Shown: one piece after another, positions 1-40,140 of the stretch
How the letters are laid out: each line of letters begins with the position of its first letter
Position numbering within the stretch: the stretch's first letter is position 1
DNA from: Deinococcales bacterium
Lineage (GTDB): Bacteria > Deinococcota > Deinococci > Deinococcales > JAAFIG01
DNA length: 40,140 nt
Reading direction: 5' to 3'
Assembly: GCA_043778225.1 (NCBI GenBank)
Contig: JAYWGM010000018.1
Location: 1-40,140 of the forward strand
Program-made: the position numbers and the translations under genes
Notes under the pieces: model-generated
What the model saw: the letters and a program-made list of their open reading frames with translations, nothing else
The model's database searches: none
What the model was told of the DNA's origin: nothing

Positions 1-323
1 TCCCGCCTACATTTTAGAATTTTCAAAAAGCGGCAATTCTGTTCTTGCTCGTAAAATAGCACCTCACGGGCTACTCGCGCTCATTACGGCGGCAGATACA
101 CTGTCCCTACTCCTTTTAGTCGGAAATGTTTTAGCAAAGAACTCTAAAACATTTCGGGGTTATACTTAACGGCAGCCCTCACCCGCCGCGCTTCTGGAAA
201 AAGTTTGGTTCGGGATTTTGAACAAAATGACTCGAGCAGCCGAAAGCAACCATGCTTTCGGCTTTGACTTTGTTGCGTAGCACATTGCTTGAGAATCAAA
301 AACAGGTCAGTATAGAACTCTGC

Positions 324-1469
324 ATGGAACAAAACTGTCCAATTTGCTATACCCAAAATCCAGCCGATGCCACGGTTTGTGAGGTTTGCGGCACTTCGTT
401 TTTAGAATCAAAAGTAACTCAGGTGGTGACCGATGAACTCCAAGCAGGGCAATTGTTAAATGGTAACCAGTACCGTGTGCTGTCGGTGATTGGGCGGGGT
501 GGCTTTGGAATTACTTACCGTGCTTTTCACCTCGAGCGGCGCGAATATGTCGCCATTAAAGAACTTTTCCCAGACGGCTTGGTGACTCGAGACCAAGAAA
601 CTGGTCTGGTGCTGCCCAATTCTGGCGAAGCTCGGGCATTAAGCACTTTGGTACAGCGCTTTGAAATCGAAGCCGATACGATTCGCCAAGTTCGACATCC
701 GACCGCCGTGACGGTACTCGAGACTTGGGAGGAACTTGGCACGGCATATATGGCAATGGAAATGCTCGAGGGCGAAACGCTCGAGCAGCGCATACTGCAA
801 GGTAAACTCTCGGAAAAAAGTGCCAAACGGCTGCTTGTGCCTCTGCTCGAGTGCTTATTTGATTTGCACGAGCGAGATTTGCTACACCGCGACATTAAAC
901 CCAGCAACATCATGATTGTGGCTGGCGAACCGGTGCTGATCGACTTTGGCAGCGCCGCCGATTTTTCACCTCGAGACAGTGTGCGTGTCTCTCATCGGGT
1001 TGTGACTCCAGCTTATGCCCCACTCGAGCAGTATGCCTCGGAAGCCAAATTTGGACCCTACACCGATTTATACAGCCTTGGAGCAACCTTTTATGAAGCC
1101 ATCACTGGTGTGCCGCCGCCCAGTGCTTTGGAGCGACGCAAAGGGGCGCGGCTTGTGCCGGTCACACGCATTAACCCCGAGATAAGCCAGAAATTCTCGA
1201 GTACCCTCGAATATATGCTCGAGGAGCGGATTGCCGACCGCCCACAAACCGCCCAGCACGTACTGCACGAACTTGGCTTGGTGGACATCAAAAGCCGCAA
1301 AGAGTTTTCGATCAAGAGTCTGGACGAACAAAACGGCGTGGTACAAAAATCGCCAGTGGTCTCGAGCCGAATTCCAGAACCACCAGAAAGCCTTGGTCAG
1401 TCAAAAATGAAGGTTTTGCCTCGAGTCAATGCGATTTCGGGGATGATTACCAAATGGCTCAAGCGGTAG
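324..1469 (+). CDS. Hanks-type Ser/Thr protein kinase with N-terminal zinc ribbon
   Basis: CPIC..CEVC ribbon; GRGGFG, VAIKE, HRDIKPSN, DFG, YAPLEQ motifs. Start moved from 252 to ATG 324 (MEQNCPIC). Confidence 0.9.
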   Translation: MEQNCPICYTQNPADATVCEVCGTSFLESKVTQVVTDELQAGQLLNGNQYRVLSVIGRGGFGITYRAFHLERREYVAIKELFPDGLVTRDQETGLVLPNSGEARALSTLVQRFEIEADTIRQVRHPTAVTVLETWEELGTAYMAMEMLEGETLEQRILQGKLSEKSAKRLLVPLLECLFDLHERDLLHRDIKPSNIMIVAGEPVLIDFGSAADFSPRDSVRVSHRVVTPAYAPLEQYASEAKFGPYTDLYSLGATFYEAITGVPPPSALERRKGARLVPVTRINPEISQKFSSTLEYMLEERIADRPQTAQHVLHELGLVDIKSRKEFSIKSLDEQNGVVQKSPVVSSRIPEPPESLGQSKMKVLPRVNAISGMITKWLKR

Positions 1470-2253
1470 ATTTGCCCCAAGTTCGCAGTAAAAAAAGCAA
1501 GACAAACGCCAAGACTGCCATCAGCCCCGATAAAACCAAAGCTGCCGCAAAATCAGACTCGAGCGCTCCGTAAACCGCCAACGTCATGGTGCGGGTACTG
1601 CCCTCAAGTGAACCCGCAAACAGAATCGTTGCCCCAAATTCGCCCAAGGCTCGAGTCCAAGTCAAGACTGCCCCCTCGAGCAAGGCTGGGCGCAGGAGTG
1701 GCAAAGTAATACGCTGCAACACAATGGTTTCGTTTGCGCCATCGACTCGGGCGGCATTCTCGAGGTCTGGGTCGAGTTGCATTAAACCTGCACGGACGGT
1801 GCGAATAAAATAGGGCGCTGCCACAAATAACTGCGCCATAATCACGGCGGTACTCGAGAAGGCAATCTGCACCCCAGCCAACTCGAGTCCAGAACCAAGT
1901 AAGCCATTGCGCCCAAAAGTAAGCAGTAAACCCAATCCAGCCACGACTGGCGGCAAAACAAGCGGCAAATCTAGGGCAGCATCCAAAACTGGTTTGCCAA
2001 AAAAGTCAAAACGCGCCAATAAAAAAGCCACAGGTGTACCAAAAATAATGGTGATGAAAAGCGTAATCATGGTTGTCCAAGCACTGACCCGCAATGCCTC
2101 GAGAACCGCCAAGCTGCTTAGTGCGCCAAGGCTCGAGAGACCGTGCCACAAAATAACACCGACTGGCACAAGCAAAAAAAGCACCAAAGCCGCCGCGAAA
2201 ATCAGCATCCAGATTGGGGCTTTGGCTTTTAAGGTTTTTTGATAAATCCCCAT
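1459..2253 (-). CDS. modB: Molybdate ABC transporter permease
   Basis: LDLPLVLPPVVAG, EAA-like LENAARVDGA, RALGEFGAT; directly follows modA. Exact start uncertain. Confidence 0.88.
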   Translation of the reverse strand: MGIYQKTLKAKAPIWMLIFAAALVLFLLVPVGVILWHGLSSLGALSSLAVLEALRVSAWTTMITLFITIIFGTPVAFLLARFDFFGKPVLDAALDLPLVLPPVVAGLGLLLTFGRNGLLGSGLELAGVQIAFSSTAVIMAQLFVAAPYFIRTVRAGLMQLDPDLENAARVDGANETIVLQRITLPLLRPALLEGAVLTWTRALGEFGATILFAGSLEGSTRTMTLAVYGALESDFAAALVLSGLMAVLAFVLLFLLRTWGKSTA

Positions 2254-2984
2254 TTGTGCAAGATACCTTGTCCAGCTAAACCAAGTACATATGCCGTAAA
2301 ATCTCGAGCCGCGTTTTTGTTGGTCGCCTCGCGCAGCACCGCAATTGGATAGCTTGCCACAACATTTTGGCGTTCTGGAATGGCAATCTCAATAACATTG
2401 GCACGAAGTTCTGGAGTCACATCGGTCGCATAAACCACGCCAGCATCGGCTTCGCCCAGTCGGACTTTAAGCGCTACCTGACGGACATTGCTTTCTTCCG
2501 AGACGACGTTTTTAAGCACTTGACTTTCAAAGTTTGCGCCAAAACGTTTGGTGGCTTGCAGATTTTTAAGCATCTGTCGGGTGTATATGCCAACCGGCAC
2601 AGTCGCTTGGGCTATCACCAATTTGACATTGGGCTGGGCTAAATCTGCCAGTGTTTTGACTCGAGCCAAACCGCGTTTTGGCGTAATAACAATCAGGCGG
2701 TTGCGGGCAAAAATTTGTGGTGGCTCAAGAATTTTCTCGAGTTTGGTGTTGGTATCAGCACTGGCAAAGACATCGGCTTTTGCCCCATTCTCAAGTTGAG
2801 TTCGTAAAATTTGTGAGCCAGCAAATTGAAAACGCACCGCTACCCCAGATTCTTTGCTAAATTCACGCCCTATCTCGGTAAAACTTTCGGTCAGGCTCGA
2901 GGCGGCAAAAATCGTTAGGCTCTGGTTTTGGCTCAAGCCTTTGGCGCAACACAGTAAAAGCAGCAAAACCAAGACTTTTTTCAT
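2229..2984 (-). CDS. modA: Molybdate ABC transporter substrate-binding protein
   Basis: Signal peptide; FAASSL, FAGS, ADVFASAD, VPVG.Y, GEADAGVVYATD. Confidence 0.9.
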   Translation of the reverse strand: MKKVLVLLLLLCCAKGLSQNQSLTIFAASSLTESFTEIGREFSKESGVAVRFQFAGSQILRTQLENGAKADVFASADTNTKLEKILEPPQIFARNRLIVITPKRGLARVKTLADLAQPNVKLVIAQATVPVGIYTRQMLKNLQATKRFGANFESQVLKNVVSEESNVRQVALKVRLGEADAGVVYATDVTPELRANVIEIAIPERQNVVASYPIAVLREATNKNAARDFTAYVLGLAGQGILHKWGFIKKP

Positions 2985-3718
2985 ACAAGCGGTTCTCGAG
3001 CTGGTTTTCCAGCAGCACGGGTTAAACCTCGGGTTTCAGGGCTGGATTCTGGAGGTTTTACAGTTTTGATGTACAATTCAATTGCCACTGCTCGGCGCAC
3101 TTCGGCTCGAGCAGGTTGTAAACCGAGTTGGCTTAACATGGCTGCCACTTTTTGGCGGTTGGGGAAACGCACCCCACTGAGCTTAAACGGGGCTTGCACC
3201 AAACGCCCAAAGTTTGTGTCTGATTCGCACAAGTACATCATAAAGAGCTTGCCACCGTCTTTGAGAACTCGGGCGCACTGCGCCAAGGCTCGAGCCGTAT
3301 CAAAAAACTCGTTGAGGCTTGCACCCATGACAATGCCATCAAAACTCGAGTCGGCATAGGGCAGGTACTCGACATTGGCGTGTTCGTAGGCAATACCACT
3401 GTTATCGCCTCGAGCCATGGCTTTTTCGAGCATCGGTTTTGAAATATCGATGGCGGTTACAATTCCGCCAGCCTTTGCCAAGACTCGAGCATAATTACCG
3501 GTGCTTGTGCCAACATCTAAAAAATTCTGGGCTGGTTGGACTGCCATCCATTCGTTCAATAAGGCAAATTCGCGCTGCAAAGTATAGTTTTCTCGAGTCA
3601 ATAACGATAACGAGCGCTCGCGCCAAAGATCGTACAACTGTGCCGTCAAGGGCAGAAAATTACTGCTTTGGGCGAGGGTATAACTGGCATTTTTTGGCAT
3701 TTTACTGGCGATAGTCAT
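2981..3718 (-). CDS. Class I SAM-dependent methyltransferase (UbiE-like)
   Basis: FLDVGTSTG motif I, IDISKPML, LPYADSSFD, ARVLKDGG. Start at ATG 3718 after TAGACT-N7; ATGA overlap with modA. Confidence 0.8.
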   Translation of the reverse strand: MTIASKMPKNASYTLAQSSNFLPLTAQLYDLWRERSLSLLTRENYTLQREFALLNEWMAVQPAQNFLDVGTSTGNYARVLAKAGGIVTAIDISKPMLEKAMARGDNSGIAYEHANVEYLPYADSSFDGIVMGASLNEFFDTARALAQCARVLKDGGKLFMMYLCESDTNFGRLVQAPFKLSGVRFPNRQKVAAMLSQLGLQPARAEVRRAVAIELYIKTVKPPESSPETRGLTRAAGKPAREPLV

Positions 3719-3903
3719 TGTGGTCAGTCTACACGCCAGACTCGCCCAAGATATTTCTATAGCCCACAAGCTCTGGTAATACAACAATTCAAACCTTATA
3801 CAGACAAAATGAGCTTTTGCTACGATTTGAAAACCTGAGGGTATCTAATTTTTAGAAATTTAATCGTTCTAAACAGCATTTTACTTTCTATCAAGAATCG
3901 CCC

Positions 3904-3926
3904 TTGACATTTGTCAAACCTTGTAC
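3904..3926 (+). promoter_or_regulatory. Candidate CarH/LitR operator overlapping a TTGACA -35 element
   Basis: Perfect inverted repeat TTGACA-TT-TGTCAA (3904-3917); TCAAACCTTGTAC (3914-3926) recurs as TCAAACCTTATAC (3789-3801). Confidence 0.5.
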
Positions 3927-3978
3927 GAATATATGGGCATTCGGAGTCAAATTACAATCTTTCAAACCCAAGGAAACC

Positions 3979-4884
3979 ATGACCAGCCAAACCACCGACA
4001 CCACACCACTCTTTACTGCCAGCGAGGTCGAAGCTCGCACCAGCGTACCCGCGACCACTTTGCGCCAGTGGGAACGGCGTTATGGTGTGCCAAACCCAAA
4101 TCGCACCGCCAGTGGCTATCGAATGTACAGCCCGCTCGACATGGCGTGTATCGAATTTTTGAAAAATCATATTCTCGAGGGCATTCCAATCTCGAGGGCT
4201 GCCGAGCTATGGCGTGAAGCACCCAATGAGAGTCTCCAAGCCAAAACCATGCCAGCCAGTCAGTTGGTCACGGAGATGATTGCCGCAACCTTGGCTGGCG
4301 ATATGGCTCGAGTCGAAAAGGTACTCGCTCAAGGTCATGCCACCATGCCAGTCGAAGATGTGGTTCTCGAGGTGATTCAGCCAAGCCTGATTGAAATTGG
4401 TGAAAAATGGCATCGCGGTGAAATCACGATTGCTCACGAACACCAAGCCACCAGTTTTATCAAAGGAAGAATGCTGCAACTCTTTGAATTGGCGGGCATT
4501 CCACGCAGCGGACCTGTGGTCGTGATTGCCTGCGGACCCGGCGAGTACCACGAAATTGGCGCATTGGCAATCGGGATTTTTTTAAGGCGGGCGGGAATTC
4601 GCACCCATTACTTGGGCGCAAATATGCCCGTGGTGGATTTGGCACGTTTCTCGAGAGAAGTCCGCGCCAGTGCGATCATGCTTTCGTGCAGTTCGGCAGA
4701 AGTGATTGATGCCATCCGCGCACAGGTGCATTTATTGCAAGAAGTCGTACCTATCCTGATTTTTGGTGGACGGGCTTTTAACGAACGCCCAGACCTCGCC
4801 AAAGAACTTGGGGGAGAATACGCCGGCGCTCATGCTGGACAAGCCCTTGGCTACTTTTTAGCCAAGCTAGGAGTAACCGCATGA
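3979..4884 (+). CDS. carH: Adenosylcobalamin-dependent photoreceptor/repressor, MerR HTH + B12-binding domain (CarH/LitR)
   Basis: LRQWERRYG in the MerR HTH; W-x9-EH (WHRGEITIAHEH); ExHxxG (EYHEIG). AAGGA RBS before ATG 3979. Confidence 0.88.
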   Translation: MTSQTTDTTPLFTASEVEARTSVPATTLRQWERRYGVPNPNRTASGYRMYSPLDMACIEFLKNHILEGIPISRAAELWREAPNESLQAKTMPASQLVTEMIAATLAGDMARVEKVLAQGHATMPVEDVVLEVIQPSLIEIGEKWHRGEITIAHEHQATSFIKGRMLQLFELAGIPRSGPVVVIACGPGEYHEIGALAIGIFLRRAGIRTHYLGANMPVVDLARFSREVRASAIMLSCSSAEVIDAIRAQVHLLQEVVPILIFGGRAFNERPDLAKELGGEYAGAHAGQALGYFLAKLGVTA

Positions 4885-6389
4885 CCCGCCAAGACCAACA
4901 AGCCGAGGTAACGATTATCGGGGCTGGCTTTGCTGGCTTGGTGGCTGGGGCGCTGCTGACCAAAGCGGGGCGCAAAGTTCAGGTTCTTGAGCGCGATATT
5001 CACCCCGGTGGCTGTGCCGCCCGCTACAGCCGTAAGCACCCGCTTGGCACATTTTCTTTTGCAGTTGGCGCGACTGTCTGCGCCGGTCTCGAGCCAAATG
5101 GCATTTTCCATGGCATTTATCAGCGCCTTGGCTTACGCCGCGATTTGCCCAACCTTGACCCTGTGATGCGCTTGCACCTCAACCAACGCCAAGCCCGTGT
5201 TTTGGGTACTCGAGCCGCTTGGAAGAACGAACTCGAGCGAGCCTTTCCCGGGCAACGTAAAGAAAAACAAGCCTTTTGGGCTGAAATTCAAAGCCTCGCC
5301 GATACGATGCACCATGCTGCACGGCGTTTCCCAAGTATGCCGTGGAAAAGCGCTTGGGATGTCTGGGACACCGCCCAAGGAATTCATCCGGGGGTCTTTA
5401 AGGTTTTACTGAGCCTCAAGCAGACAGTCGGGCAACTGCTCGAGAAGCACAAAATTAGCGACCCAGCCCACCGCGCTTTTATAGACGGACAACTGCTCGA
5501 TTCGATGCAATGTGTTTCCAAAGATTGCGCTGCCCCAAATGGCGCTTATGCACTCGAGGTCTACCGTTTTGGGGCGCAGTACGTGCCGGGCGGACTGGCG
5601 ACCCTTGCCGAAGACTTGGCTGGATTTATAGACAACAACGGTGGGAAAGTTCATTATGCAACTCGAGCCAAAAGTATCCTGCTCGAGTCTGGCAAAATAA
5701 AAGGAGTTGAAGGTCATGGGCGCAATTTTCTTTCGCCCGTGGTGATTTCAACTGCTCCAGTTCACGACACCCTGAAGCTAGTTTCTGACCCACGGCTGCT
5801 GCCAGCCACGCAAAAAATCGAGCAAATGCCCGAAATCTGGGGTGCATTTACGATGTACCTTGGGATTAACGAAAAAGTCTTGCCCAAAGGCACTGGTCTT
5901 TTTGAACAAATTTCTGATTACGACGAAAACGGCTTAACCGAGAATTTTCTGGTTTCAATCTCGAGCCACGACGACCGAATTCGCGCCCCAGAGGGCTACC
6001 GCAGCATCACGATTTCGACCCATGTCAGACCAGAAGGCTTTTTTAACCTCAGCCCCGAGGATTACCGCACACAAAAAATTGCTCTTGAACAGCGTATTTT
6101 GCGCCGTCTCGAGTTGCTTTTTCCTGGATTCTCCGACAGTATCGTGCTTTTAGAAAGTGGAACGCCGCGCACCTTCGAGCGTTTTACCCTGCACAGCCTC
6201 GGAAGGGTTGGAGGCATCCCACAAATGCCTCACAGTGCTAATTTTAATGCGCTGCACCACACTTCTGGTCTACCGGGCTTACTTTTTGCCGGCGAGACTG
6301 TTTTTCCCGGACAAGGCACACTCGGCGTTGCCGTCAGTGGCTTTAATGCGGCTCGGACAACTGGGCGCTATTTGGCGCACCTAACCTAA
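4881..6389 (+). CDS. FAD-dependent carotenoid desaturase family protein (resembles cyanobacterial-type C-3',4' desaturase CrtD)
   Basis: IIGAGFAGL Rossmann motif, PGGCA..F.VGAT..AGLEPNG, GTPRTFERFT, FPGQGT. ATGA-coupled to carH. Confidence 0.72.
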   Translation: MTRQDQQAEVTIIGAGFAGLVAGALLTKAGRKVQVLERDIHPGGCAARYSRKHPLGTFSFAVGATVCAGLEPNGIFHGIYQRLGLRRDLPNLDPVMRLHLNQRQARVLGTRAAWKNELERAFPGQRKEKQAFWAEIQSLADTMHHAARRFPSMPWKSAWDVWDTAQGIHPGVFKVLLSLKQTVGQLLEKHKISDPAHRAFIDGQLLDSMQCVSKDCAAPNGAYALEVYRFGAQYVPGGLATLAEDLAGFIDNNGGKVHYATRAKSILLESGKIKGVEGHGRNFLSPVVISTAPVHDTLKLVSDPRLLPATQKIEQMPEIWGAFTMYLGINEKVLPKGTGLFEQISDYDENGLTENFLVSISSHDDRIRAPEGYRSITISTHVRPEGFFNLSPEDYRTQKIALEQRILRRLELLFPGFSDSIVLLESGTPRTFERFTLHSLGRVGGIPQMPHSANFNALHHTSGLPGLLFAGETVFPGQGTLGVAVSGFNAARTTGRYLAHLT

Positions 6390-6430
6390 CCTCGTGCGGT
6401 GCATTCCCGCAAAGAATGTCAGGAGCTTTT

Positions 6431-7060
6431 ATGATGAATTTAGGTACAAACCGACCACATCAAATGCGTTACCGCCGTGGACAAACCGTTTACTACGAAG
6501 GCGACCCCGCGCTATCTTTATTCCGAGTCGAAAGCGGCTTAATTCGGATTGCCAAACTGACCCCCAAAGGACGGGTTTTAACCGTGCGCCATGTTTTACC
6601 CGGCGATTACTTTGGCGAAGAAGCCCTCAATAAGCAGTGGCGCGACCACCAAGTCGAAGCCCTAACCGACGCAACTCTTGTACCTGTAGACCCACAGAGC
6701 ATCACTGGCGATAACCTTGGGGTAGTGACACGCAGTTTATCCGACCAACTGCAACGGGTCATGGCATACGAGTACCACTTACAAATTGGCGACCTGCGGC
6801 AGCGCGTTTCGCGTTATTTGCTGCAACTGGCACAAACTCCACTGGGCGGCACCGATGAATCTAACCGCACCTATGTCCGTGCAACCCACGAACTGATTGC
6901 CGAAGGCACAAGCAGCACTCGAGAAAGTGTTTCTAAAATCATCACCGAGTTGCGTTCAGAAGGCTTATTACAAAGTGGCTACCGCCGCATTACGCTGCTC
7001 AATAACCCAATGCTCGAGCGCATGGCACAGCACTCTGACCTTGACGAAAACGAACTGTAA
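6431..7060 (+). CDS. CRP/FNR-family transcription factor, LdrP-like
   Basis: cNMP-like domain (PGDYFGEEAL) and HTH ATHELIAEGTSSTRESVSK; AGGAG RBS; next to carH/litR as in Thermus litR-ldrP. Confidence 0.8.
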   Translation: MMNLGTNRPHQMRYRRGQTVYYEGDPALSLFRVESGLIRIAKLTPKGRVLTVRHVLPGDYFGEEALNKQWRDHQVEALTDATLVPVDPQSITGDNLGVVTRSLSDQLQRVMAYEYHLQIGDLRQRVSRYLLQLAQTPLGGTDESNRTYVRATHELIAEGTSSTRESVSKIITELRSEGLLQSGYRRITLLNNPMLERMAQHSDLDENEL

Positions 7061-7078
7061 AACCACAAGCTGACTTTT

Positions 7079-7122
7079 GTAAAAGCGCAAGGCAACCAGA
7101 GCCTTGCGCTTTTACTTTTGCC
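7079..7122 (+). terminator. Intrinsic terminator after the CRP-family gene
   Basis: 15-bp perfect stem GTAAAAGCGCAAGGC / GCCTTGCGCTTTTAC (7079-7093 / 7101-7115) followed by T runs. Confidence 0.8.
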
Positions 7123-7161
7123 CTTTTTACCTTTTCACCTTCGCAGGTTAAACTACTCCTC

Positions 7162-8962: not shown

Positions 8963-9019
8963 TGCGGTGAATTTCGATTATTTCACAGTCAATTTCCAAA
9001 ATAGGTGTACGCTTTTGTG

Positions 9020-11221
9020 ATGAGACGATATTCGCTGGTTTTGGCTGGCATCCTTGCAGTTGCCTGTGGCAGCATTTCCAACTCGGCTGTGCCAAACGGA
9101 TTAAACCCGATTATTTTTGTAACCCAAGTGCCGATTGCGCCAGATTTTACAACCATCGGTTCAACTTTTGGTAATCACCTTGGCAGCATGGAATCGGTGG
9201 CTCGAGGTGGCGATTTGTACATTCGTTATGGCGATGGCAAACTTAAAAACTTGACTTTAGCTGCTGGTTATGGGGTCTCGAGTGGAATGCAGGGCGCAAG
9301 TTCGATTGCGGTGCGCGACCCGAGTGTCCATTGGGATGGCAAAAAAGTTATTTTTAGCATGGTTGTTGGCGCACCGACCAAACAATACGAAGTCAAAAAT
9401 TTCAATTGGCAACTCTACGAAATCAGTAATCTCGAGTCAAACCAAACCCCTATCATTACAAAAATTCCAAACCAGCCGGTCTATAACAATATCTCACCGA
9501 TTTATGGCTCGGACGACCGCATTATTTTTACTTCAGACCGCCCTCGAGATAACTCAAGCCATTTATATCCACAGCGCGACGAGTACGAATCAGCGTTTAC
9601 CAATACGGGTTTGTGGAGCTTAAATCCCTCGAGCAACGACCTTAAACTTTTGAACCATGCCCCGAGCGGCAATTTTACACCGACTTTAGACAGCTTTGGC
9701 AGAATTATCTTTACCCAATGGGACCACTTAAAGCGCGACCAGCAAGCTGATGCCGACAAATATGCGGGGGGTAGTTCTGGCACATTTAACTATGCCTCGG
9801 AAAGCCCCAATGCCGCCAAGTCAAACAGCCGCACCGAGATTTTCCCTGAGCCTCGAGTAGACCAAGAAATTGCTGGTACAAACCTCAATAAGCACGATTT
9901 TAACCAGTTTTTTCCATGGATGATTCTCGAGGATGGTACTGAATCCGAAACGCTCAACCATGCTGGCAGGCACGAATTGATGAGCGGTGATGCAAGGGGC
10001 TATATCGAGCCAAGTTTGACTGACGACCCCGCCCTCGAGACTTTTAGCCCACCAAATCTTAGTAAAAACCAGAATTACATTGAAAATATGTTTCAACTGC
10101 GCGAAGACCCAAGCCGTGCTGGAACATATTATGGCATTAACGCCCCAGAATTTAACACCCATGCCAGTGGGCAAATCGTCAGCCTCAATGGTGCGCCAAA
10201 TGTAGCCGTCAACGAGATGAAAATTACGTATATCACCGACCGCGCCACGGCGAATCCGAGCGAAGACGGTGCAACTGCCAACCCAAATCACTCTGGAATG
10301 TACCGTGACCCTCTGCCACTTAAAAACGGCGAGTTGATTATAGCCCACAGCCCCGAGACTCGAGCCGATAAAGCTGGCGCAAGCATCACCAATTCGCGTT
10401 ATGCCTACCGCTTAAAAAACCTTAAAAAACAAAGTAATGGTTTATTTGTAGCCGACCAAACCCTGACCGACGGGATTAAGAAAACCCTCGAGTTTTGGAG
10501 TCCAGACGTAAAAATAACCTATGCTGGCAACCTATGGGAATTACAACCCATTGAACTGATTGCCAAAAAACGCCCAGCAAAACGCACCGAGCCACTGCCG
10601 AGTTTGGAAGCACAAGTTCTAACCCAAGCGGGGGTCAGCGAAACTGCCCTCAAAGCCTACCTGACCAGCAATAATCTGGCATTGGCAGTGGTGCGTAATG
10701 TCACCACCCGAGATGCTGCCGATTTACAGCAACCTTTTAACCTTAAAGTTCCCAACGGCGTGCAGAGCCTAAGCAGTAAGTACACGGCTGGACAAAAAAT
10801 TTATGATGTCAGTCAGCTTCAATTTTTCCAAGCCGACCAAATACGCGGCTACGGTGGTACAACCACCCCCCAAGCTGGACGGCGCGTGTTGGCACAAACC
10901 CTACACGATACCAAAGCTATAGCCAGCAACACTGCTTATGCCGATTTCACACCCAGCACTGGCAGCCTAGCAGTTGCTACTGACGGCAGCGCCGCCGCTT
11001 TTGTGCCAGCCAGACGCGCTTTGTCGTGGCAACTGAGCAGCCCCAACGGAACACCAGTGGTGCGCGAACGCTATTGGGTGACTTTCCAACCCGGCGAAGT
11101 GCGAGTTTGTACAAGTTGTCACGGGTTAAATGACCAAGACCAAGCAGGAGCAGCCACACCCAGCAATGCCCCAAAGGCACTACTCGAGTTGCTTAAAAAA
11201 TGGAAAGCAGCTAATCCGTAA
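9020..11221 (+). CDS. Lipoprotein with TolB-like propeller and hydrazine-synthase-alpha-like middle domain; single c-type heme motif
   Basis: Lipobox LAVAC; DPSVHWDGKKVIFSM; C-terminal WVTFQPGEVRVCTSCHG (CxxCH). Start ATG 9020 after TACGCT-N6. Confidence 0.65.
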   Translation: MRRYSLVLAGILAVACGSISNSAVPNGLNPIIFVTQVPIAPDFTTIGSTFGNHLGSMESVARGGDLYIRYGDGKLKNLTLAAGYGVSSGMQGASSIAVRDPSVHWDGKKVIFSMVVGAPTKQYEVKNFNWQLYEISNLESNQTPIITKIPNQPVYNNISPIYGSDDRIIFTSDRPRDNSSHLYPQRDEYESAFTNTGLWSLNPSSNDLKLLNHAPSGNFTPTLDSFGRIIFTQWDHLKRDQQADADKYAGGSSGTFNYASESPNAAKSNSRTEIFPEPRVDQEIAGTNLNKHDFNQFFPWMILEDGTESETLNHAGRHELMSGDARGYIEPSLTDDPALETFSPPNLSKNQNYIENMFQLREDPSRAGTYYGINAPEFNTHASGQIVSLNGAPNVAVNEMKITYITDRATANPSEDGATANPNHSGMYRDPLPLKNGELIIAHSPETRADKAGASITNSRYAYRLKNLKKQSNGLFVADQTLTDGIKKTLEFWSPDVKITYAGNLWELQPIELIAKKRPAKRTEPLPSLEAQVLTQAGVSETALKAYLTSNNLALAVVRNVTTRDAADLQQPFNLKVPNGVQSLSSKYTAGQKIYDVSQLQFFQADQIRGYGGTTTPQAGRRVLAQTLHDTKAIASNTAYADFTPSTGSLAVATDGSAAAFVPARRALSWQLSSPNGTPVVRERYWVTFQPGEVRVCTSCHGLNDQDQAGAATPSNAPKALLELLKKWKAANP

Positions 11222-28971: not shown

Positions 28972-28972
28972 G

Positions 28973-30353: not shown

Positions 30354-31865
30354 ATGAGTCAAGCAAACGACCAGCAGCAAATCGCCGAGGATACCCAAGT
30401 CCTGCACAGCATGGGTTATGCCCAAGAACTCGCCCGTCGGATGAAGAGTTTTAGTAATTTTGCGATTGCCTTTTCGATTATCTGCATTTTGTCGGGTGGC
30501 ATCAACTCGCTCGGACAAGCCATTGGTGGGGCTGGTGGGGCTGCCATCGGCATTGGCTGGCCCATCGGTGTCGGCATTAGCTTTTTGTTTGCCTTGGGCA
30601 TGGCGCAAATCGCCAGTGCTTACCCGACGGCTGGCGGGTTATACCACTGGAGCAGCATTCTTGGTGGGCGAGGTTGGGGCTGGGCAACAGGCTGGCTTAA
30701 TCTGTTGGGTTTGGTGACGGTGCTGGGCGCGATTAACGTTGGCACATTCTTCTTTTTTATTGGAGCATTTGGCACGACCCTAGGACTCGAGGGTAATTTA
30801 ACCACCCAAATTATTTTCCTGATGATTCTGACCAGTATTCAAGCAGCAGTCAATCATTTTGGGATTCGTTTAACCACGATGCTGACCGATTTTTCGGGCT
30901 ACCTGATTTTTGTGGTGGCGATAGCCTTAACCTTAGCCCTGATTATTTATGCCCCAACTCGAGATTTTGCACGGCTTTTTACCTTTACCAATTATTCTGG
31001 TGAGGCTGGCGGCAGTGTCTGGCCCAGCACCGATTTAACCACGGTTTTCTTACTTGGTTTACTGCTGCCGATTTACACGATTACTGGCTACGACGCTTGC
31101 GCTCATGTTTCCGAAGAAACCGTCAATGCCCAGCGAAGTGTCCCCAAAAGCATCATCTCGAGTACCTTATGGTCTGGTTTATTTGGTTACATCATGCTCT
31201 GTGCTTTTGTGCTGGCAATTCCAGACATGAATGAAGCCGCCAAGACTGGCTTTGGGGTCTTTTTTTATGTGATGGATAAAATTGTGCCAAGTGGCGTGCG
31301 CGAAGTCTTGTACGTCGGCATTTTCCTCTCGCAGTTTCTATGCGGACTTGCAACCGTCACCAGCGCCTCGAGAATGATTTTTGCCTTTGCTCGAGATGGC
31401 GGCTTCCCAAGTTTCTTAAAAGTGATTAACAAGACCTACCGCACCCCAGTAGCCGCAATTTGGGTGGCGGGCATGATCAGCATTTTGTTTACGCTCTATG
31501 CGCCTGTCTACACCACGATTGTGACCATCTGTGTGATTTTTTTGTTTCTAAGTTATGCCATGCCAATTGCGGCTGGCTTTATGGCTTACGGCAAAACTTG
31601 GACAAAAATGGGTCCTTGGGACATGGGTCCAAGTTTTAAGATTGTGGCGATTGCTGTGGTGGCAGCCATTATCTTTATCTTTGGCATTGGCATACAACCG
31701 CCCAACGACAAAGCCCTCTGGGTGACACTGGGAATGTTTGCACTGTTGATTGCCGCATGGTTTGGACTCGAGAAAAACCGCTTCACAGGACCACCAACTG
31801 GCGAGGATATTGCTAAACGTCAAGCCGCGATTAAAGCTGCCGAAAAAGCCATTGGGAACGACTAA
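30354..31865 (+). CDS. APC-family amino acid/amine permease
   Basis: MGYAQELARRM..FSNFA, SAYPTAGGLYHW, TGYDACAHVSEET, FARDGGFP; AAGGAGG RBS. Confidence 0.9.
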   Translation: MSQANDQQQIAEDTQVLHSMGYAQELARRMKSFSNFAIAFSIICILSGGINSLGQAIGGAGGAAIGIGWPIGVGISFLFALGMAQIASAYPTAGGLYHWSSILGGRGWGWATGWLNLLGLVTVLGAINVGTFFFFIGAFGTTLGLEGNLTTQIIFLMILTSIQAAVNHFGIRLTTMLTDFSGYLIFVVAIALTLALIIYAPTRDFARLFTFTNYSGEAGGSVWPSTDLTTVFLLGLLLPIYTITGYDACAHVSEETVNAQRSVPKSIISSTLWSGLFGYIMLCAFVLAIPDMNEAAKTGFGVFFYVMDKIVPSGVREVLYVGIFLSQFLCGLATVTSASRMIFAFARDGGFPSFLKVINKTYRTPVAAIWVAGMISILFTLYAPVYTTIVTICVIFLFLSYAMPIAAGFMAYGKTWTKMGPWDMGPSFKIVAIAVVAAIIFIFGIGIQPPNDKALWVTLGMFALLIAAWFGLEKNRFTGPPTGEDIAKRQAAIKAAEKAIGND

Positions 31866-31878
31866 AATTATTCTGCTC

Positions 31879-31901: not shown

Positions 31902-31918
31902 TTGTCTCGAGGACTATC

Positions 31919-33250: not shown

Positions 33251-33251
33251 A

Positions 33252-33549
33252 ATGAATGTTATCGGACCAAAAAAAGTTTATTTATCCAGATTCAGAAATT
33301 GTCCTGCGTGAATGGTATAATGCCCTACGAGCAACGGATTTCCCAAACTTCTCGGCAATACGAAATTCTTTTTCAGGCGTAGATTTAACCCATAATCAAA
33401 TTAACGATTCTGTTCATATTTTTGATGTTGGTGGAAACAAGTACCGAGTTGTCTGCTTCATCAATTACAACAACCAAACGACATACATAAAATATATCTT
33501 TACCCACAAAGAATATGACCGTTGGAATCAATTAGGAAAACCAGCATGA
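33252..33549 (+). pseudogene. higB: HigB-family toxin with an apparent 5' frameshift/deletion (alternative intact ORF from ATG 33256)
   Basis: YPDSE..LREWY...FDVGGNKYRVV..I.Y....YIKYIFTHKEYDR. The typical N-terminus MNVIGPKK is in a different frame (ATG 33252), switching at an A7G run. Confidence 0.65.
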
Positions 33550-33770
33550 TTGAATATCAAAACACAGTTAATCAATGGCAAGATTTAAGCCAACAGCTTC
33601 GTGAACCACAAACAGAAGCAGAGTACGATAATTTACTCGAGTTCACAGACCGACTCTCAAGCGAATACAGCATCGAACGTGAGCCAATGAAAGGGTTATT
33701 TTGGTTACTAAACACATATCTAAATGCTTGGGAGCAAAAAAATGACCCTTGGACTACTCAAAAAACATAG
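33546..33770 (+). CDS. HigA-like antitoxin N-terminal domain lacking the HTH
   Basis: PQTEAEYDNLLEF.D.L...L..LL..YL.AWE; ATGA overlap with higB; only 74 aa. Confidence 0.6.
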   Translation: MIEYQNTVNQWQDLSQQLREPQTEAEYDNLLEFTDRLSSEYSIEREPMKGLFWLLNTYLNAWEQKNDPWTTQKT

Positions 33771-34116
33771 AGCAATAAGTCTATTTTGGATTTCTTTTTT
33801 TGGATTTATACTCGTCGTTCTGTTCTGGTTTGTTTTGTATTCAAGAATGCTTGAGCGTCAGGAAGGAAATTTAACGGTTTTTGTACCAGCGATTATAAAA
33901 TTACTCGAGAATCCAAATCAAACTGTTGCCTTAGATAACCAGTCAGGACGCTTTTTGGCTCGAGGCAATCCAACGGATTTGAAACTGGTGCTTGCTACGA
34001 AAGGATGGATTTTAACAGACCAAATGGGAAGCTCAATGAAATTTCGTTTCAACGACAAAGAATTTTCAATAGTGTGTCGGCAATTCACGGCACAATTTAT
34101 TATGTGTCAACCTTAA
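33742..34116 (+). CDS. Hypothetical single-pass membrane protein
   Basis: GGAG RBS before ATG 33742; one N-terminal TM helix; AT-rich like the TA genes. Confidence 0.55.
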   Translation: MTLGLLKKHRAISLFWISFFGFILVVLFWFVLYSRMLERQEGNLTVFVPAIIKLLENPNQTVALDNQSGRFLARGNPTDLKLVLATKGWILTDQMGSSMKFRFNDKEFSIVCRQFTAQFIMCQP

Positions 34117-34126
34117 AGGAGTATTC

Positions 34127-34900
34127 ATGCGTCTCGAGAATAAAGTGGCTTTAATTACAGGCGGTGGCAGTGGCATCGGCAAAGAATCAGCCTTGCTATT
34201 TGCTGCCGAAGGTGCAAGTGTGGTCGTGGTGGACTTGAACCAAGCGGCTGGTCAAGCCGTGGTCTCGAGTATCGTCGCGGCTGGTGGGCAAGCCGTGTTT
34301 GCCAAAGCCGATGTTTCTAAAGCTGCCGATTGCAAAAACATGGTGCAGGTTGCCGAGGATAGTTTTGGTAAACTGGACGTTATTTTTAATAACGCTGGTA
34401 TCTCTCATGCGGACGACGACAACGCCATGAACACCGAAGAAGATGTTTGGGATTTGACTTTTGCGATCAATGTTAAGGGTGTTTTCTTAGGCTGTAAATA
34501 CGCCATTCCCGCCATGCTTAGGGCTGGTAGCGGCAGCATCATCAACACCGCTTCGTTTGTAGCGGTACTTGGCGCTGCCACGCCGCAACTTGCCTATACC
34601 TCGAGCAAAGGCGCGGTTTTAAGCATGACTCGAGAACTGGCTGCGATTCATGCCCGTCAAGGGATTCGGGTCAATGCCTTGTGTCCAGGTCCACTCCGCA
34701 CTGAACTGCTGATGAAATATCTCGACACCGAGGAAAAACGCCAACGCCGTCTGGTGCATATTCCAATGGGGCGTTTTGGCGAAGCCCAAGAAATGGCAAA
34801 AGCCGCCTTGTGGTTGGCTTCGGATGACTCGAGTTTTACCACAGGCGCGACCTTCCTCGCCGATGGCGGAATCACCAGCGCTTACACCACACCGCTTTGA
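34127..34900 (+). CDS. Short-chain dehydrogenase/reductase
   Basis: TGGGSGIG, FNNAG, YTSSK, NALCPGP; AAGGAG RBS. Confidence 0.93.
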   Translation: MRLENKVALITGGGSGIGKESALLFAAEGASVVVVDLNQAAGQAVVSSIVAAGGQAVFAKADVSKAADCKNMVQVAEDSFGKLDVIFNNAGISHADDDNAMNTEEDVWDLTFAINVKGVFLGCKYAIPAMLRAGSGSIINTASFVAVLGAATPQLAYTSSKGAVLSMTRELAAIHARQGIRVNALCPGPLRTELLMKYLDTEEKRQRRLVHIPMGRFGEAQEMAKAALWLASDDSSFTTGATFLADGGITSAYTTPL

Positions 34901-34901
34901 G

Positions 34902-34960
34902 AAGGTCAAAAGGGAAAATCTTTAACCTTTTGACCTTTTGACCCTTTCACCTTGCTTTTT
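34902..34960. terminator. Hairpin plus octamer tandem repeat between convergent genes
   Basis: AAGGTCAAAAGG (34902-34913) / CCTTTTGACCTT (34926-34937); CTTTTGAC-type units in tandem. Confidence 0.6.
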
Positions 34961-36118
34961 TCACCCTGCCAGTAGTTGGTACGCGCCTAGCAACGTCTGC
35001 GGTGCGTCACTCGAGGCTCGGACTTTGATGCGGTGCGGGTTGGGTGCAAGTAAGTGGGTACTGTCGGTGAATGGGTCGCTGTGAATGCCCAATGCACCCA
35101 GCCGCCGCATGGCGTGGGCGGCAATTGGTGTACCACAAAGCAGCAAATGCTCAAAGCATTTGTTACTCGAGAGTTGGGCGATGGTTTCAGATAGGGCTTC
35201 AAGCGCGGTGCGCTTGGCAAGAGCGGCTGGGAGACCAAAACCAGTTGACTCGAGGTGCAAGACACAACCGCCAATTTTTAAGGCAATTCTGGCTTCTTCG
35301 ATGGCTCGAGCCATGCCATGTTCGCTTGGCTCAAAAGAAACAATCTTTAATCCACTGGCACGGAGGGTTTTGAGTTGTTCAAAGTGGTGCGGACTGCTAC
35401 CAAGCGCCAGTAAAGTGGGCGCAATGGCATCCACATTCTCGAGTTCGTCTGGTTGGCTAACTGCAAAAGCTGCGCCAATGGCTCTGGCAAGGTTGGCGCT
35501 GCCCGCCCATAAAACCTCTTCGGGATTTGGCACACTCGCCACTAAATTCTCGGCATCGCCGCGATTGCCGCCATCCACAATCACAAAACGGGCATTCTCG
35601 AGCGCAGTTTCGAGGTTGCTTGGCGTAATGTCGCGCACCAATGCAACCGCACCCAAACCTTCACGCTCGAGCAGTTCGGGGATATTGGCATCGTAAACTG
35701 GATTCAAGCGGTCACGAGCCAAAGTCGTGCGATGAAGCGGCGAACCATGCCAAAAAACCGTACCATGGCGCACTTCAAAACCCTCAAGTGGGCTAAAAGC
35801 TGCCAAAATCACTTTATCGCGCCCACTGGCTTCGAGTGTGGCAAATAAATCATCCCACGGGCGGCGAAGACTCGAGTCAAACTTAAAAAAAGCAATTTGG
35901 CTATGGCGCAAGTTACGTCCCAGATTTTGCAGCCGTGTTCTCGAGTCGAGCTTTGAAAGACCGTGCAGGTCAGCATCCAAGACCAGCGCACTGCTTGGCT
36001 CGAGTTGCTGGCTGTTGTGTTCGTGCAGTAGCACGGTGGTTTCGTGACCCGCCCGAGCAAAAGCGCTGGCGAGCCGCGTGGCATCGACAATTGAATCGGC
36101 AAGCGCAGCGAACTTCAT
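34961..36118 (-). CDS. Four-carbon acid sugar kinase family (DUF1537) protein, degenerate
   Basis: LADSIVDA, FFKFDSSLR, AAFSP..G..V..G, WAGSANLA align with family motifs IADDLTGA, YKKIDSTLRG, PAFP..GR, GSAGLA. Confidence 0.62.
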   Translation of the reverse strand: MKFAALADSIVDATRLASAFARAGHETTVLLHEHNSQQLEPSSALVLDADLHGLSKLDSRTRLQNLGRNLRHSQIAFFKFDSSLRRPWDDLFATLEASGRDKVILAAFSPLEGFEVRHGTVFWHGSPLHRTTLARDRLNPVYDANIPELLEREGLGAVALVRDITPSNLETALENARFVIVDGGNRGDAENLVASVPNPEEVLWAGSANLARAIGAAFAVSQPDELENVDAIAPTLLALGSSPHHFEQLKTLRASGLKIVSFEPSEHGMARAIEEARIALKIGGCVLHLESTGFGLPAALAKRTALEALSETIAQLSSNKCFEHLLLCGTPIAAHAMRRLGALGIHSDPFTDSTHLLAPNPHRIKVRASSDAPQTLLGAYQLLAG

Positions 36119-36445
36119 GTCAAATTTTACGTCATGGGATTGTCAAATGCTAGTGAATGAACAAAGGCTTTTTAATACAAATTCCAATGTTTCGCAAAAT
36201 TGTTTGTCAAACATATAAATACCCACTTTATCAAAATTCAGTACCTAAACTATATCGGCTATCTATTTGCTAGACACACTCGAGCCAATGACATAAGGAT
36301 TGCGATTTGATTCTACTTCTAAATCTTGTACCTTGGGAGCGTTAGGCATTTTGCGCTTCTCGAGCCTTATGCTTTTGCCCAGTTTTCTCGAGTATTTGCT
36401 TTTTTACTCAAGCCTAGGCGGCTTGCTTCTTGAGTCAACCCCGAC

Positions 36446-36480
36446 TTGTGACGCTTTTTGTGACGCTTAGCCTTTAGACT
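36446..36480 (+). promoter_or_regulatory. Direct-repeat operator candidate plus -10 of a leaderless promoter
   Basis: TTGTGACGCTT at 36446 and 36458; TAGACT 36475-36480, 6 nt before ATG 36487. Confidence 0.55.
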
Positions 36481-36486
36481 GACTCC

Positions 36487-39228
36487 ATGAGACATTATTT
36501 GCAATGGCTGGCGTTAGCAACCTTGGCGGTTTTGGTGGCGTGCGGCGGAGGCGGCACAACCCCCAACCCCAACGATTTACAGGTTACACCCGATAAACTT
36601 TTGTACACGATTATTCCCGAAACGGTGCAACTCTCGAGCAACGTGGTTTCTAAAATCTCGAGCGTCAGCACCGTGGATGGCAGCCTGACTTTTACAGGCA
36701 ATCCAGCCGAACTTGCTAATCTCGAGCAGGGCAGTGTTTTACTGTCCCCAGCCAGTCCGCAAACTCCAAAGGGCTTACTGCGAATTGTTAAAAGTAAAAA
36801 ACTCGAGAACGGCAATTTGGTTCTCGAGACCACGGTTGCCCCAATTCAGTTGGCGTTCTCGAGCATGGATATTCAGATTTCACGGCGCATCGATGATGTC
36901 GGTAGTGCCAAAGCCAGTTTACAACCTCAGTTTACGCAAACGATACCGTTTAGCCGAGGATTACTGCTCGATTATGTACCGTACAATGCCGACAATAATT
37001 TAAGCACCACCAACGATCAGATGGTTGTCAGTGGTGGGCTTGGCGTGGGCATGGTTTTTACCTTCAGGCTCGAGTTTGACTGGGGCGGCAAAACAGGCAT
37101 TATCAAAGAAGTGGCAAAATGTCTTGCTTCGGTTGGTATTTTTTGTGATGTGGAAAAAGTCATTCCAGAATTAAAGACTGGACTCGAGTTTGATACTTTT
37201 GCCAAGGCAGGTTTTGGTATCGAAGGGGCTGCCAGTTTACCATTCGACACCGGCGAACGACCCATTTGTGAGGATAATAAAAAGACCTGCCCACCAATTA
37301 ACCTAGGCACAATTCCGGTCGGACCACTGGTCTTTGATGTCGGCTTAGATTTCACTGGACAAATAGATGGTGATGCCTCGAGCAACATTAAACTTGCGGC
37401 TGGAATGGAACTTGGAGTTCGTGCCAGCTTGAGTGCCTCGAGTAAAACAGGGGTTAGTTTTGTACCACCCACACCCTATAAAAAATTTACCCCACCAACG
37501 GTCAGTGCCAGCCTAAAAGGACGCGCTCGAGTTCGGGTCGGTCCACGCTTATCGGTTTTACTGTATGGCGTGATTGGTCCAACCGTCGGCGCACAGTTTA
37601 CTGGTGAAGTCGTGGCGGATGCAGCGCTGACCCCATGCTGGAAACTCAACCTTGGCGTGAGTGCCAGTGTCGGCTTACGTTTACGCATACCGTGGGAGAA
37701 AATTGGCTTTGAAGAAATTGCTGATACGCTTGGTATTAACTTAGATTTATCGAAGTCCAAAAGCTATAACCTGATTAGCGAAACGGTTTTGAGTGGTGCG
37801 TGCAGTGCGCCGCCCATCGGTAGCATCCCGCCCGGAGACAGTCCCTCGAGCCAAACATTGTTAAATCCAACCTTTGTGCCGTGGTCAAAGATGTTTAATG
37901 CCGCCAATGCCGAATTTGCAACTGGTTTTGACTTTAGTTACGAAGAGGGTCAGGTCTGGACTGGTTTTACAAAAACCATCGAAGGCTCAGACGTTTTGCA
38001 ATCTTCGGAGTCGCCGTACACGATTAAAATTTCTCCAACTGGCAATCTGCTTTGGAATAAAATGTTTCGCAGTAAAATTAACGCGCTGGGTTTTGATGAA
38101 GATTATTATTATCCACCCAATGCAGTTGTCTCGAGCCAAGATTCTAATCTACTGATTGCCAGTTCCCCAAAAGGCAGGTTAGTCGCTTCGCAACCACCGG
38201 TTCTGATTCGAGCCAGTCAAGCCGGCGAGGTCATCAGTGCCAGCCAATACTTAACCCATGCCGACGAAAAAGCTGGTTTGACCGGAACACGCAAAATGAT
38301 CGAGCTACCAGACGGGACACTCTACATGCTGACCGATGCCACCGATGCCAACGACAATATCAATATCGTGTTGTTAAAACTCAAAGCCGATGGCAGTCTG
38401 ATTTGGGCAAAAACCATAGATATAGGCAATGAAGATTTACCCACGACCCTCGAGCCAATGCCAGATGGTGGTGTGGTCTTAGCGGGTTACGACTGGCGCG
38501 AATTCCCAACTGGCAGCTTTATCATTCGGCTAGGGGCAGATGGCAGCCAAACTTGGGCAAAAAAAGCCTTTAATTGTGGCTCTGGAAACGCAACTGATTT
38601 GAATATCACAGCCAGCAACAAAACGGGTAGCGGCGATTTACTGTTTGTTGGCGCAGGCGCAATCGCACCAACCGAAGGTGTTTTGATGCAAATTTCACCA
38701 AGCGGCACACTGGTGCAAGGAAAAAGTTACATCACTGGCTCGAATATCCGCAATGTCTGGTTTACGGGCATTCAGCAATTAGCCACGACTGGTTATGTGA
38801 TTAGTACAGTGCGTGAACGGGCATTAAATCAAGATAGCCTTGGTCTGATTGGCTTAGATAGCCTTGGCGGGGTGCAATGGTCACGTTCCTTGAACATTAA
38901 ATCCTTGGCTGGCGAAAACGATGTTTTATCCAGTAAAACCAGTCTGCGCTTAACCACCGATGGCGGCATCATGACCCTAGGCAGTAGCGCTTTCCCAAAT
39001 CCAAATGGCAACCGCATGGGTTTATGGGTTTCTAAAATTCCCGCTAAAAACGGTCAGATTAGCCTCAACTCGAATTTTGACAATGATGAAACACCCGTTA
39101 CTGCCAGCAACTGCACCTTTAGCCTAACTAACATCACGCCCACCATCTCGAGTCGCACCGTATTCACCCGCAATATGACCGTCACGACCGAAGATTTTAA
39201 TTTGCCGACCACCGTCGCAACCCCGTAA
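36487..39228 (+). CDS. Large surface lipoprotein with C-terminal beta-propeller-like repeats
   Basis: Lipobox LVAC-GGGG; repeats LLKLKADGSLIWAK, IIRLGADGSQTWAK, IGLDSLGGVQWSR, IKISPTGNLLWNK. Confidence 0.8.
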   Translation: MRHYLQWLALATLAVLVACGGGGTTPNPNDLQVTPDKLLYTIIPETVQLSSNVVSKISSVSTVDGSLTFTGNPAELANLEQGSVLLSPASPQTPKGLLRIVKSKKLENGNLVLETTVAPIQLAFSSMDIQISRRIDDVGSAKASLQPQFTQTIPFSRGLLLDYVPYNADNNLSTTNDQMVVSGGLGVGMVFTFRLEFDWGGKTGIIKEVAKCLASVGIFCDVEKVIPELKTGLEFDTFAKAGFGIEGAASLPFDTGERPICEDNKKTCPPINLGTIPVGPLVFDVGLDFTGQIDGDASSNIKLAAGMELGVRASLSASSKTGVSFVPPTPYKKFTPPTVSASLKGRARVRVGPRLSVLLYGVIGPTVGAQFTGEVVADAALTPCWKLNLGVSASVGLRLRIPWEKIGFEEIADTLGINLDLSKSKSYNLISETVLSGACSAPPIGSIPPGDSPSSQTLLNPTFVPWSKMFNAANAEFATGFDFSYEEGQVWTGFTKTIEGSDVLQSSESPYTIKISPTGNLLWNKMFRSKINALGFDEDYYYPPNAVVSSQDSNLLIASSPKGRLVASQPPVLIRASQAGEVISASQYLTHADEKAGLTGTRKMIELPDGTLYMLTDATDANDNINIVLLKLKADGSLIWAKTIDIGNEDLPTTLEPMPDGGVVLAGYDWREFPTGSFIIRLGADGSQTWAKKAFNCGSGNATDLNITASNKTGSGDLLFVGAGAIAPTEGVLMQISPSGTLVQGKSYITGSNIRNVWFTGIQQLATTGYVISTVRERALNQDSLGLIGLDSLGGVQWSRSLNIKSLAGENDVLSSKTSLRLTTDGGIMTLGSSAFPNPNGNRMGLWVSKIPAKNGQISLNSNFDNDETPVTASNCTFSLTNITPTISSRTVFTRNMTVTTEDFNLPTTVATP

Positions 39229-39561
39229 AAGGAGCGCAAATGGTTTATCACTGTAGAACTACGCAATGCCATGACCAAAACGGCTCGAGCCGATTGGAGT
39301 GGTTCAGACCGAAATGGCACGAACATCAGTTTGATTCTGGCTTCTGGTAAATCCTTAAAATTAGATAACAATGTTGGTAATTTGGTCTTAACCGACCTTG
39401 CCCCTGGTGCAAGTGTCATCGCCACGCTCGAGTTTAAAGCCGATACCGCCGAGGATAAAGCCACAAAGTTCTTATGGGCAATGAGCGCCGAGTTTAATGG
39501 TGATAAAGCACCTTTGGCTAAAGATGCTGCCTTTCGGATAGACTTAGGTTGCACAAAATAA
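39229..39561 (+). pseudogene. 5'-truncated paralog of the downstream secreted protein
   Basis: WFITVELRNAMTKTA...TLEFKAD...DKATKFLWAMSA versus WIFTVELRNAMNKTA...TLEFTAD..DKPTKFLWAMSA in the 39571 gene; homology starts upstream of the only in-frame ATG near the 5' end (39271). Confidence 0.7.
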
Positions 39562-39570
39562 AGGAGTTTT

Positions 39571-40140
39571 ATGAAAGTAGCTCGAGTTATTCTTGGTGTT
39601 GGTCTAGTTGCGGTACTTGGTTTTGCCTTGGCACAAGCGGTCAAGCAGGTCAGTGTTTCGCTGGCTGGAAAATCCCTCAAGTTAGACAGTGTGATCGTCA
39701 GTGGTAAAACCTATGTTTCGCTCGAGCAACTAAAAAAAGCCTTGCCAAACCCTGTTGGTGGGGCAAACCAAGCGGCGGGTACGACTGGCTGTGTCAATCA
39801 ACTGCTGTTTAATGGCGCGTGGCGTTTTCGGGTGCAAAAATTTGTGTACAGTCTCGAGAAAACCGCTTGGATTTTTACCGTCGAACTTCGCAATGCGATG
39901 AATAAAACTGCCGCAGTCTATAACAATGGCGCAAATGGATTTGGCGAGGATATAACCCTGACGATGGCTTCTGGGAATACCTTAAACATGGGCAATGTCA
40001 ACGAGACTCAGGACAAAATTCTGCTTAAAAACCTTACGGCAGGGGCTGGGGTGGTCACGACGCTCGAGTTTACAGCCGATTCGGACGCGGATAAACCCAC
40101 CAAATTCTTATGGGCAATGAGTGCAAGTAACAACAATGAT
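39571..40140 (+). CDS. Secreted hypothetical protein (runs off the window end; not in the ORF track)
   Basis: AAGGAG RBS, ATG 39571, signal peptide MKVARVILGVGLVAVLGFALA-Q; 190 codons open to the end. Confidence 0.8.
   Translation, partial: MKVARVILGVGLVAVLGFALAQAVKQVSVSLAGKSLKLDSVIVSGKTYVSLEQLKKALPNPVGGANQAAGTTGCVNQLLFNGAWRFRVQKFVYSLEKTAWIFTVELRNAMNKTAAVYNNGANGFGEDITLTMASGNTLNMGNVNETQDKILLKNLTAGAGVVTTLEFTADSDADKPTKFLWAMSASNNND

Follow-up and report, generated by a model that had tools for sequence, protein, structure and literature searches.

The window analysed here is the whole 40,140-nucleotide stretch (1..40140) of contig JAYWGM010000018.1, contig C18 of the Deinococcales genome GCA_043778225.1 (hereafter G000; 4.03 Mb, 48.7% G+C, 89% complete). 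Our subject is the near-absence of the four-base word GGCC from this genome and the restriction-modification (R-M) systems that probably caused it. The window carries ordinary metabolic genes and zero avoidable GGCC; the R-M genes discussed below lie outside it, in relatives. By exact count GGCC occurs twice, at 30559..30562 and 31021..31024, both times inside an amino-acid permease gene of the APC family (30354..31865, plus strand; best match TIGR00907, under its cut-off). Both copies are TGG-CCC, encoding Trp69-Pro70 (IGIGWPIG) and Trp223-Pro224 (SVWPST); the two positions and their Trp-Pro context are those reported in an earlier, sequence-only reading of the window. Its figure of roughly 150 expected copies was conservative, because base composition gives ~153 and a second-order Markov model 236.

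For comparison we used a family sample of 19 genomes from five genera (g1-g5) of an uncultured Deinococcales family, 18 of them relatives of G000. Both permease Trp-Pro pairs are invariant in every one of the 15 relatives found to have the gene. In the g1 and g5 orthologues the Trp-Pro codons are the sole GGCC seen, and orthologues from g2, g3 and g4 hold 6-11 copies.

Loss of GGCC and of Trp-Pro in G000

The window is representative of a signature that spans the genome. G000 contains 131 GGCC against 20,923 expected, the lowest ratio among four-base words; the Karlin ratio (formula as implemented in this analysis, under-representation cut-off <0.78) is 0.012 for the genome, 0.017 for the window and 0.028 in a sample of the relative G011. 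With our own gene calls (3,870 genes), the 131 copies split into 72 at Trp-Pro codons (TGG-CCN), 47 avoidable coding copies and 12 outside called genes, 4 of the latter in tRNAs. Synonymous resampling predicted 16,790 coding copies where 119 are present, and codon and amino-acid usage are thus no explanation. By frame, the avoidable copies stand at 11/6,366, 1/629 and 35/9,754 of the codon-usage expectation. Six of them sit in a contig end with GroEL (C15:118001-119030; 60% G+C, 12 GATC) whose composition looks foreign and which is probably a chimeric join or recent import; avoidable sites overall showed no clear confinement to foreign genes (CTCGAG 5.4 vs 6.2 per kb).

Overlooked in the sequence-only reading was that Trp-Pro itself is largely gone from the proteome. 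It is the sole dipeptide that forces GGCC and the rarest of all 400 in G000, with 72 occurrences vs 744 expected. We aligned G000 genes with their best matches at >=50% identity, that is at least 50%, in three less-depleted relatives, sampling 787 kb of G010, 800 kb of G013 and 117 kb of G012, with positions that may overlap between sets. Trp-Pro pairs were retained in G000 at 6/39, 9/40 and 0/4 positions, respectively, for a total of 15/83 where 62-68% retention was expected (binomial p ~1e-9 in each of two genomes); the comparison pairs Phe-Pro, Tyr-Pro and Pro-Trp were 66% retained in the two larger sets. Where the amino acids were identical between orthologues, 2 of 1,471 avoidable GGCC copies had been retained. 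Conversely, all 15 aligned G000 Trp-Pro pairs are Trp-Pro in the relative also, so none is newly arisen. As unrelated bacteria have a Trp-Pro ratio of 0.81 and G010 one of 0.77, the loss falls in the G000 lineage, the comparison being pairwise. The replacements are varied, including Trp-Ala, Tyr-Pro, Phe-Pro, Leu-Pro and Trp-His among others, with Trp-Ser in 7 of 68 cases. An altered code with TGA read as Trp was rejected, since Trp codons are TGG and the aligned replacements are other amino acids. Overall, G000 has lost ~99% of its GGCC sites and, with them, ~90% of the GGCC-forcing Trp-Pro pairs.

Depletion, with lower retention in orthologues, also extends to Gly-Pro, which forces GGNCC (ratio 0.35), and to Pro-Gly, which forces CCNGG (ratio 0.60); judging by their loss, sites besides GGCC may also be reshaping G000 proteins. 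Elsewhere in the window, a scan for tRNA and Rfam families returned zero matches, and two long open reading frames at 9005-11221 (738 amino acids) and 36487-39228 (913 amino acids) had no NCBIfam match at 1e-8.

Two cassettes in the depleted genera

We used GGCCAA as a six-base proxy: each g1 or g5 genome has 21-92 copies, each g3 genome 1,056-1,424, and those of g2 and g4 have 2,747-4,628. GGCC loss marks two genera, g1 and g5, with 14 genomes. Malate synthase is 85% identical to that of the nearest relative returned, a 'Deinococcales bacterium' assembly. A tree of one gene placed g1 and g5 apart, though with weak support, so that one and two origins of the loss are both possible.

NgoPII cuts GGCC. 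A nuclease of the NgoPII family (PF09521, 251-286 bits) was found in 5 of the 18 relatives, all in g1 or g5, intact in G003, G004, G015 and G016 and broken in G014. In all four intact cases it is followed by an M.HaeIII-like C5 methyltransferase; that of G003 matches M.HaeIII (PDB 1dct) with 402 bits over residues 3-323, its full length including the target-recognition region, and those of G004, G015 and G016 are 73-90% identical to it. A second pair occurs in 6 of the 18 relatives, again all g1 or g5 (G001, G005, G011, G014, G017, G018), and consists of an alpha-class D12 methyltransferase (PF02086, 123 bits, with a DPPY motif) and a 367-residue protein.

With both cassettes pooled, carriers of an NgoPII-family or predicted GGCC nuclease make up 10 of 14 depleted genomes vs 0 of 5 others, the genomes being kin and thus not independent. 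Probable GGCC systems, of the kind that the sequence-only reading had proposed to look for, were found in 10 relatives, namely in all 6 g5 genomes and in 4 of the 7 g1 genomes other than G000; none was found in G000. Zero genomes have both nucleases intact. Within each genus the two cassettes have common flanks and breakpoints, and the g1 breakpoint corresponds to C89:64668 of G000, where the locus is empty. In G014 (C256, locus L165) a stop-broken NgoPII gene without methyltransferase lies beside an intact second cassette, which looks like a replacement in progress.

The 367-residue partner had no Pfam match and no Foldseek match at E <0.001. Its structural model has a predicted local distance difference test score (pLDDT) of 89.6, and residues 221-367 match PD-(D/E)xK proteins, with Z scores no higher than 5-6; D250, E263 and K265 are invariant across 30 sequences. 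The methyltransferase of the second cassette shares 55% identity with a Nostoc plasmid enzyme that adjoins a HaeIII-family nuclease (matched by PF09556); of the 8 plasmid matches to this methyltransferase, 3 have a neighbour of that kind.

The 367-residue protein has 2,770 homologues, and in metagenomes 70 of 80 loci that encode it also encode the methyltransferase. We assessed GGCC in 35 such loci of >=8 kb, that is at least 8 kb, representing 27 lineages with 29-62% G+C, and in 49 control loci. The observed/expected ratio was <0.25 in 24 of the 27 lineages, with a median of 0.05 vs 0.87 in controls. Among dipeptides, Trp-Pro ranked lowest in the 19 loci with the deepest depletion (9 vs 51) and also in the remaining 16 (15 vs 37). 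AGCT is low in many hosts of the protein too, with a median of 0.57 and values <0.5 in 40% of the 35 loci (L208-L287).

From three lines, namely methyltransferase kinship, host GGCC loss and fold likeness, we infer that the second pair is GGCC-specific. The 367-residue protein is predicted to be a PD-(D/E)xK nuclease that cuts GGCC, cleavage of this word being ascribed to it because the host signature alone points there. A broader proposal is that this widespread unannotated family is a GGCC restriction enzyme which, alone or rotating with NgoPII, drives GGCC to ~1% in hosts of different phyla, outweighing the purifying selection on their proteins; we hold this tentatively, at slightly worse than even chances.

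G000 itself was searched for other candidates. The idea that some members of the population carry a cassette unseen in the assembly was rejected, as two sequencing runs, which may be the genome's source, span the empty locus in single contigs; no loose contig end at the empty junction appeared among the rows listed. A HaeIII-family nuclease (PF09556) was found in 0 of 31 genomes; no control genome matched, but the model does match the Nostoc gene. A Dam-like gene (C101:10360-11184) was set aside because its clade differs from the GGCC-linked one, as was the methyltransferase on C33, which resembles the methyltransferase beside MspI and not that of HaeIII. The C33 locus (L001, C33:16107-17736) pairs this MspI-like C5 methyltransferase with a 199-residue HNH protein and has no MspI-family nuclease; the CCGG ratio is 0.36. 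At L014 (C66:66701-68467) an EcoRV-family nuclease accompanies a methyltransferase, and the genome has only 13 GATATC. For four further nuclease candidates of G000 the plasmid matches were unnamed and viral scans yielded nothing useful; three plasmids checked for them had no clear GGCC loss (6/10, 14/16 and 161/157).

Restriction as the probable cause of the loss, and alternatives

We think it likely that GGCC is near-absent because Type II R-M systems cutting GGCC, long carried by the lineage, made every site slightly harmful. Two interchangeable cassettes would have served at one locus per genus, either the NgoPII-type nuclease with its M.HaeIII-like methyltransferase or the alpha methyltransferase with the predicted PD-(D/E)xK protein. 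Sites left unmethylated, be it following replication or upon a cassette's entry into a cell lacking one, would be cut. As swapping between cassettes would leave the specificity within the population unchanged, the pressure would never be interrupted for long. Assuming mutation-selection-drift balance, the scaled cost would be ~6 per site, which would clear nearly all synonymously removable sites and those Trp-Pro pairs that are cheaper to replace; the survivors would be strongly constrained Trp-Pro pairs, the two in the window among them. G000 would have inherited its signature from cassette carriers.

Several observations weigh against this account. Queries for PF09556, PF09521, M.HaeIII-like proteins, alignment A1 and the alpha methyltransferase found no GGCC system in the 89%-complete assembly of G000, and the same queries found none in G002, G006 and G007. 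GGCCAA in these four genomes is 11-22 per Mb, nearly as low as in g1 carriers (7-11). Such purged non-carriers are compatible with a recent loss of the system, with an enzyme missing from the assembly or not recognised, or with a drive acting through DNA exchange. G000 carries several further R-M pairs of unassigned specificity, and about 30 other six-base words are <0.08 in it, which exceeds what the identified enzymes explain; the depleted words include degenerate sets that resemble GRCGYC, GDGCHC, GGNNCC and RCATGY. The family contrast comes down to five genera of non-independent kin. Among the metagenome lineages, 3 of 27 are only mildly depleted (0.41-0.68). In G019, from another Deinococcales family, a 4.5-kb sample contains 2 GGCC vs 25; this genome has the methyltransferase, and no nuclease was found in it. 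As a separate observation, CTCGAG is raised in G019 (L048, L145; 6,990). In G000 the GATC ratio is 0.18, with visibly milder depletion in g5 loci.

The same nucleases might instead act on incoming chromosomal DNA, cutting GGCC-bearing fragments from methyltransferase-free strains so that site-free alleles would be recombined in more frequently and spread without a fitness gain for the cell. This would explain why cassette-free genomes stay purged, and G000 has the ComEC and DprA genes, while carriers and empty-allele genomes coexist in g1. ComEC and DprA, however, were also matched in 10-11 of 14 control genomes and are therefore little informative; moreover, the mixing is seen between species, and the two runs contain the empty allele only. 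The site counts predicted are identical to those under self-damage, so nothing here favours drive, which we regard as unlikely, and a further point to set against self-cleavage is that the data fit it and restriction during DNA exchange without separating the two.

A single lineage-wide process, such as palindrome toxicity or an agent enriching CTCGAG, could have removed GGCC along with other palindromes and left the cassettes as passengers. The ~30 other palindromic or degenerate six-base words beyond the reach of known enzymes would agree with this, as would the lack of a detectable GGCC nuclease in G000. Other palindromes, however, are normal or enriched (AGCGCT 2,042; CAATTG 2,270; TTGCAA 2,013; GCGC ratio 1.02), and the loss extends to degenerate sites that are not palindromes, GACGCC and GAGCAC for example. 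CTCGAG gain does not track GGCC loss either. The window contains 276 copies of CTCGAG and the genome 24,877 (6.2 per kb); the word stands at 4.3-6.8 per kb across the family and makes Leu-Glu the most enriched dipeptide in G000 (2.32). It is present at 4.3-6.8 per kb in g2 and g4, where GGCC is near-normal, and hardly occurs in unrelated GGCC-depleted hosts (0-8 per 9-21 kb). The two are therefore separate traits, dissociating in both directions, and the sequence-only reading's view of GGCC loss as mirroring the CTCGAG gain finds no support as a shared mechanism. We consider a lineage-wide process improbable.

Selection against a HaeIII-type site, the other part of that interpretation, fared better, given the GGCC cassettes in both depleted genera and the pattern of substitutions; the biased repair suggested alongside it found no support. 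Under mutation or repair bias, a methylated inner C would deaminate (GGCC to GGTC/GACC) or Vsr-like repair would erase the sites. A C5 methyltransferase for GGCC is indeed present in four relatives, coding GACC is 1.34-fold above the synonymous null, and the g3 genomes G009 and G013, which have the second-type methyltransferase only, are partly depleted (G013 0.53); hypermutation at all four GGCC positions would also be compatible with the data. In the Ala frame (N-N-G|GCC), however, escapes occur at positions 1 and 4, beyond the reach of inner-C deamination. As an inner change alters Ala, Ala-frame sites should persist under deamination, yet 35 of 9,754 are left. The pairwise data also suggest that changes out of GGCC are distributed over its four positions according to codon freedom. 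The signature of 5-methylcytosine deamination (inner C-to-T loss, excess GGTC/GACC, Trp-Ser) did not appear, with GGTC/GACC at 0.97 in spacers and its product Trp-Ser accounting for only 7 of the 68 replacements. Synechocystis is reported to methylate 38,512 GGCC motifs and to retain them (10.64898/2026.10.20.760421). Vsr (PF03852) was matched in control genomes and in 0 of the 19 family genomes, which are 57-94% complete. The escape changes are in line with selection rather than methylcytosine deamination, and mutational or repair bias is, if anything, the least probable of the explanations considered.

Known systems and implications

DNA uptake sequences and HIP1 are DNA words that alter amino-acid pairs by word gain; the present case is alike in that a word changes dipeptides and differs in being a nuclease-tied loss. 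Type II site avoidance as such is established (PMC4687349; review PMC8410138). Rusinov et al. 2015 (PMC4687349) describe four-base palindromes cut by orthodox Type II systems as under-represented, including in genomes that lack the system themselves while relatives carry it, so that avoidance can trace systems retained by relatives; the 107 GGCC rows of their supplement 4 give chromosome-size ratios of 0.15-1.32. The G000 value of 0.012 is deeper than the lowest of these, 0.15, and the effect reaches protein sequence, which the sections of that paper at hand do not discuss.

The pairs of G003, G004, G015 and G016 match the NgoPII/HaeIII systems (PF09521; 1dct), with the difference that in this family they alternate at their locus with a cassette unrelated to them, and that none was found in G000. 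HaeIII cuts GGCC, and CbeI/M.CbeI and DmtB represent alpha-class GG(m4)CC methyltransferases (PMC3425538). The second cassette resembles these in its D12 methyltransferase with DPPY, the likeness to M.CbeI running via the Nostoc enzyme only. A CbeI-type system would be expected to include a HaeIII-family nuclease; the partner in the second cassette is not HaeIII-like and has no Pfam match. The GGCC rows of the PMC4687349 supplement list a predicted GGCC enzyme for Anaerolinea thermophila, and Anaerolineales appear among the second-cassette homologues, so REBASE may already predict GGCC for members of the family.

In the literature covered, to which subscription journals and REBASE are external, we found no report of Trp-Pro loss via GGCC avoidance and none of CTCGAG excess in this group. 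Avoidance is known; that literature did not yield a loss of this depth, a cost at the level of proteins or the new nuclease family predicted here. Restriction-site avoidance is usually seen as a modest synonymous bias, and here it is ~12x deeper than the lowest published chromosome value. The system offers a way of weighing what self-restriction costs against the constraint on amino acids, and bears on the choice between autoimmunity and exchange bias. Host word depletion also yields a testable specificity prediction for a large family of hypothetical proteins, an approach reusable on other unannotated nucleases. If the broader proposal for the 367-residue family is true, Trp-Pro depletion would be a proteome record of restriction history, and the surviving pairs would mark residues constrained above a measurable per-site cost.

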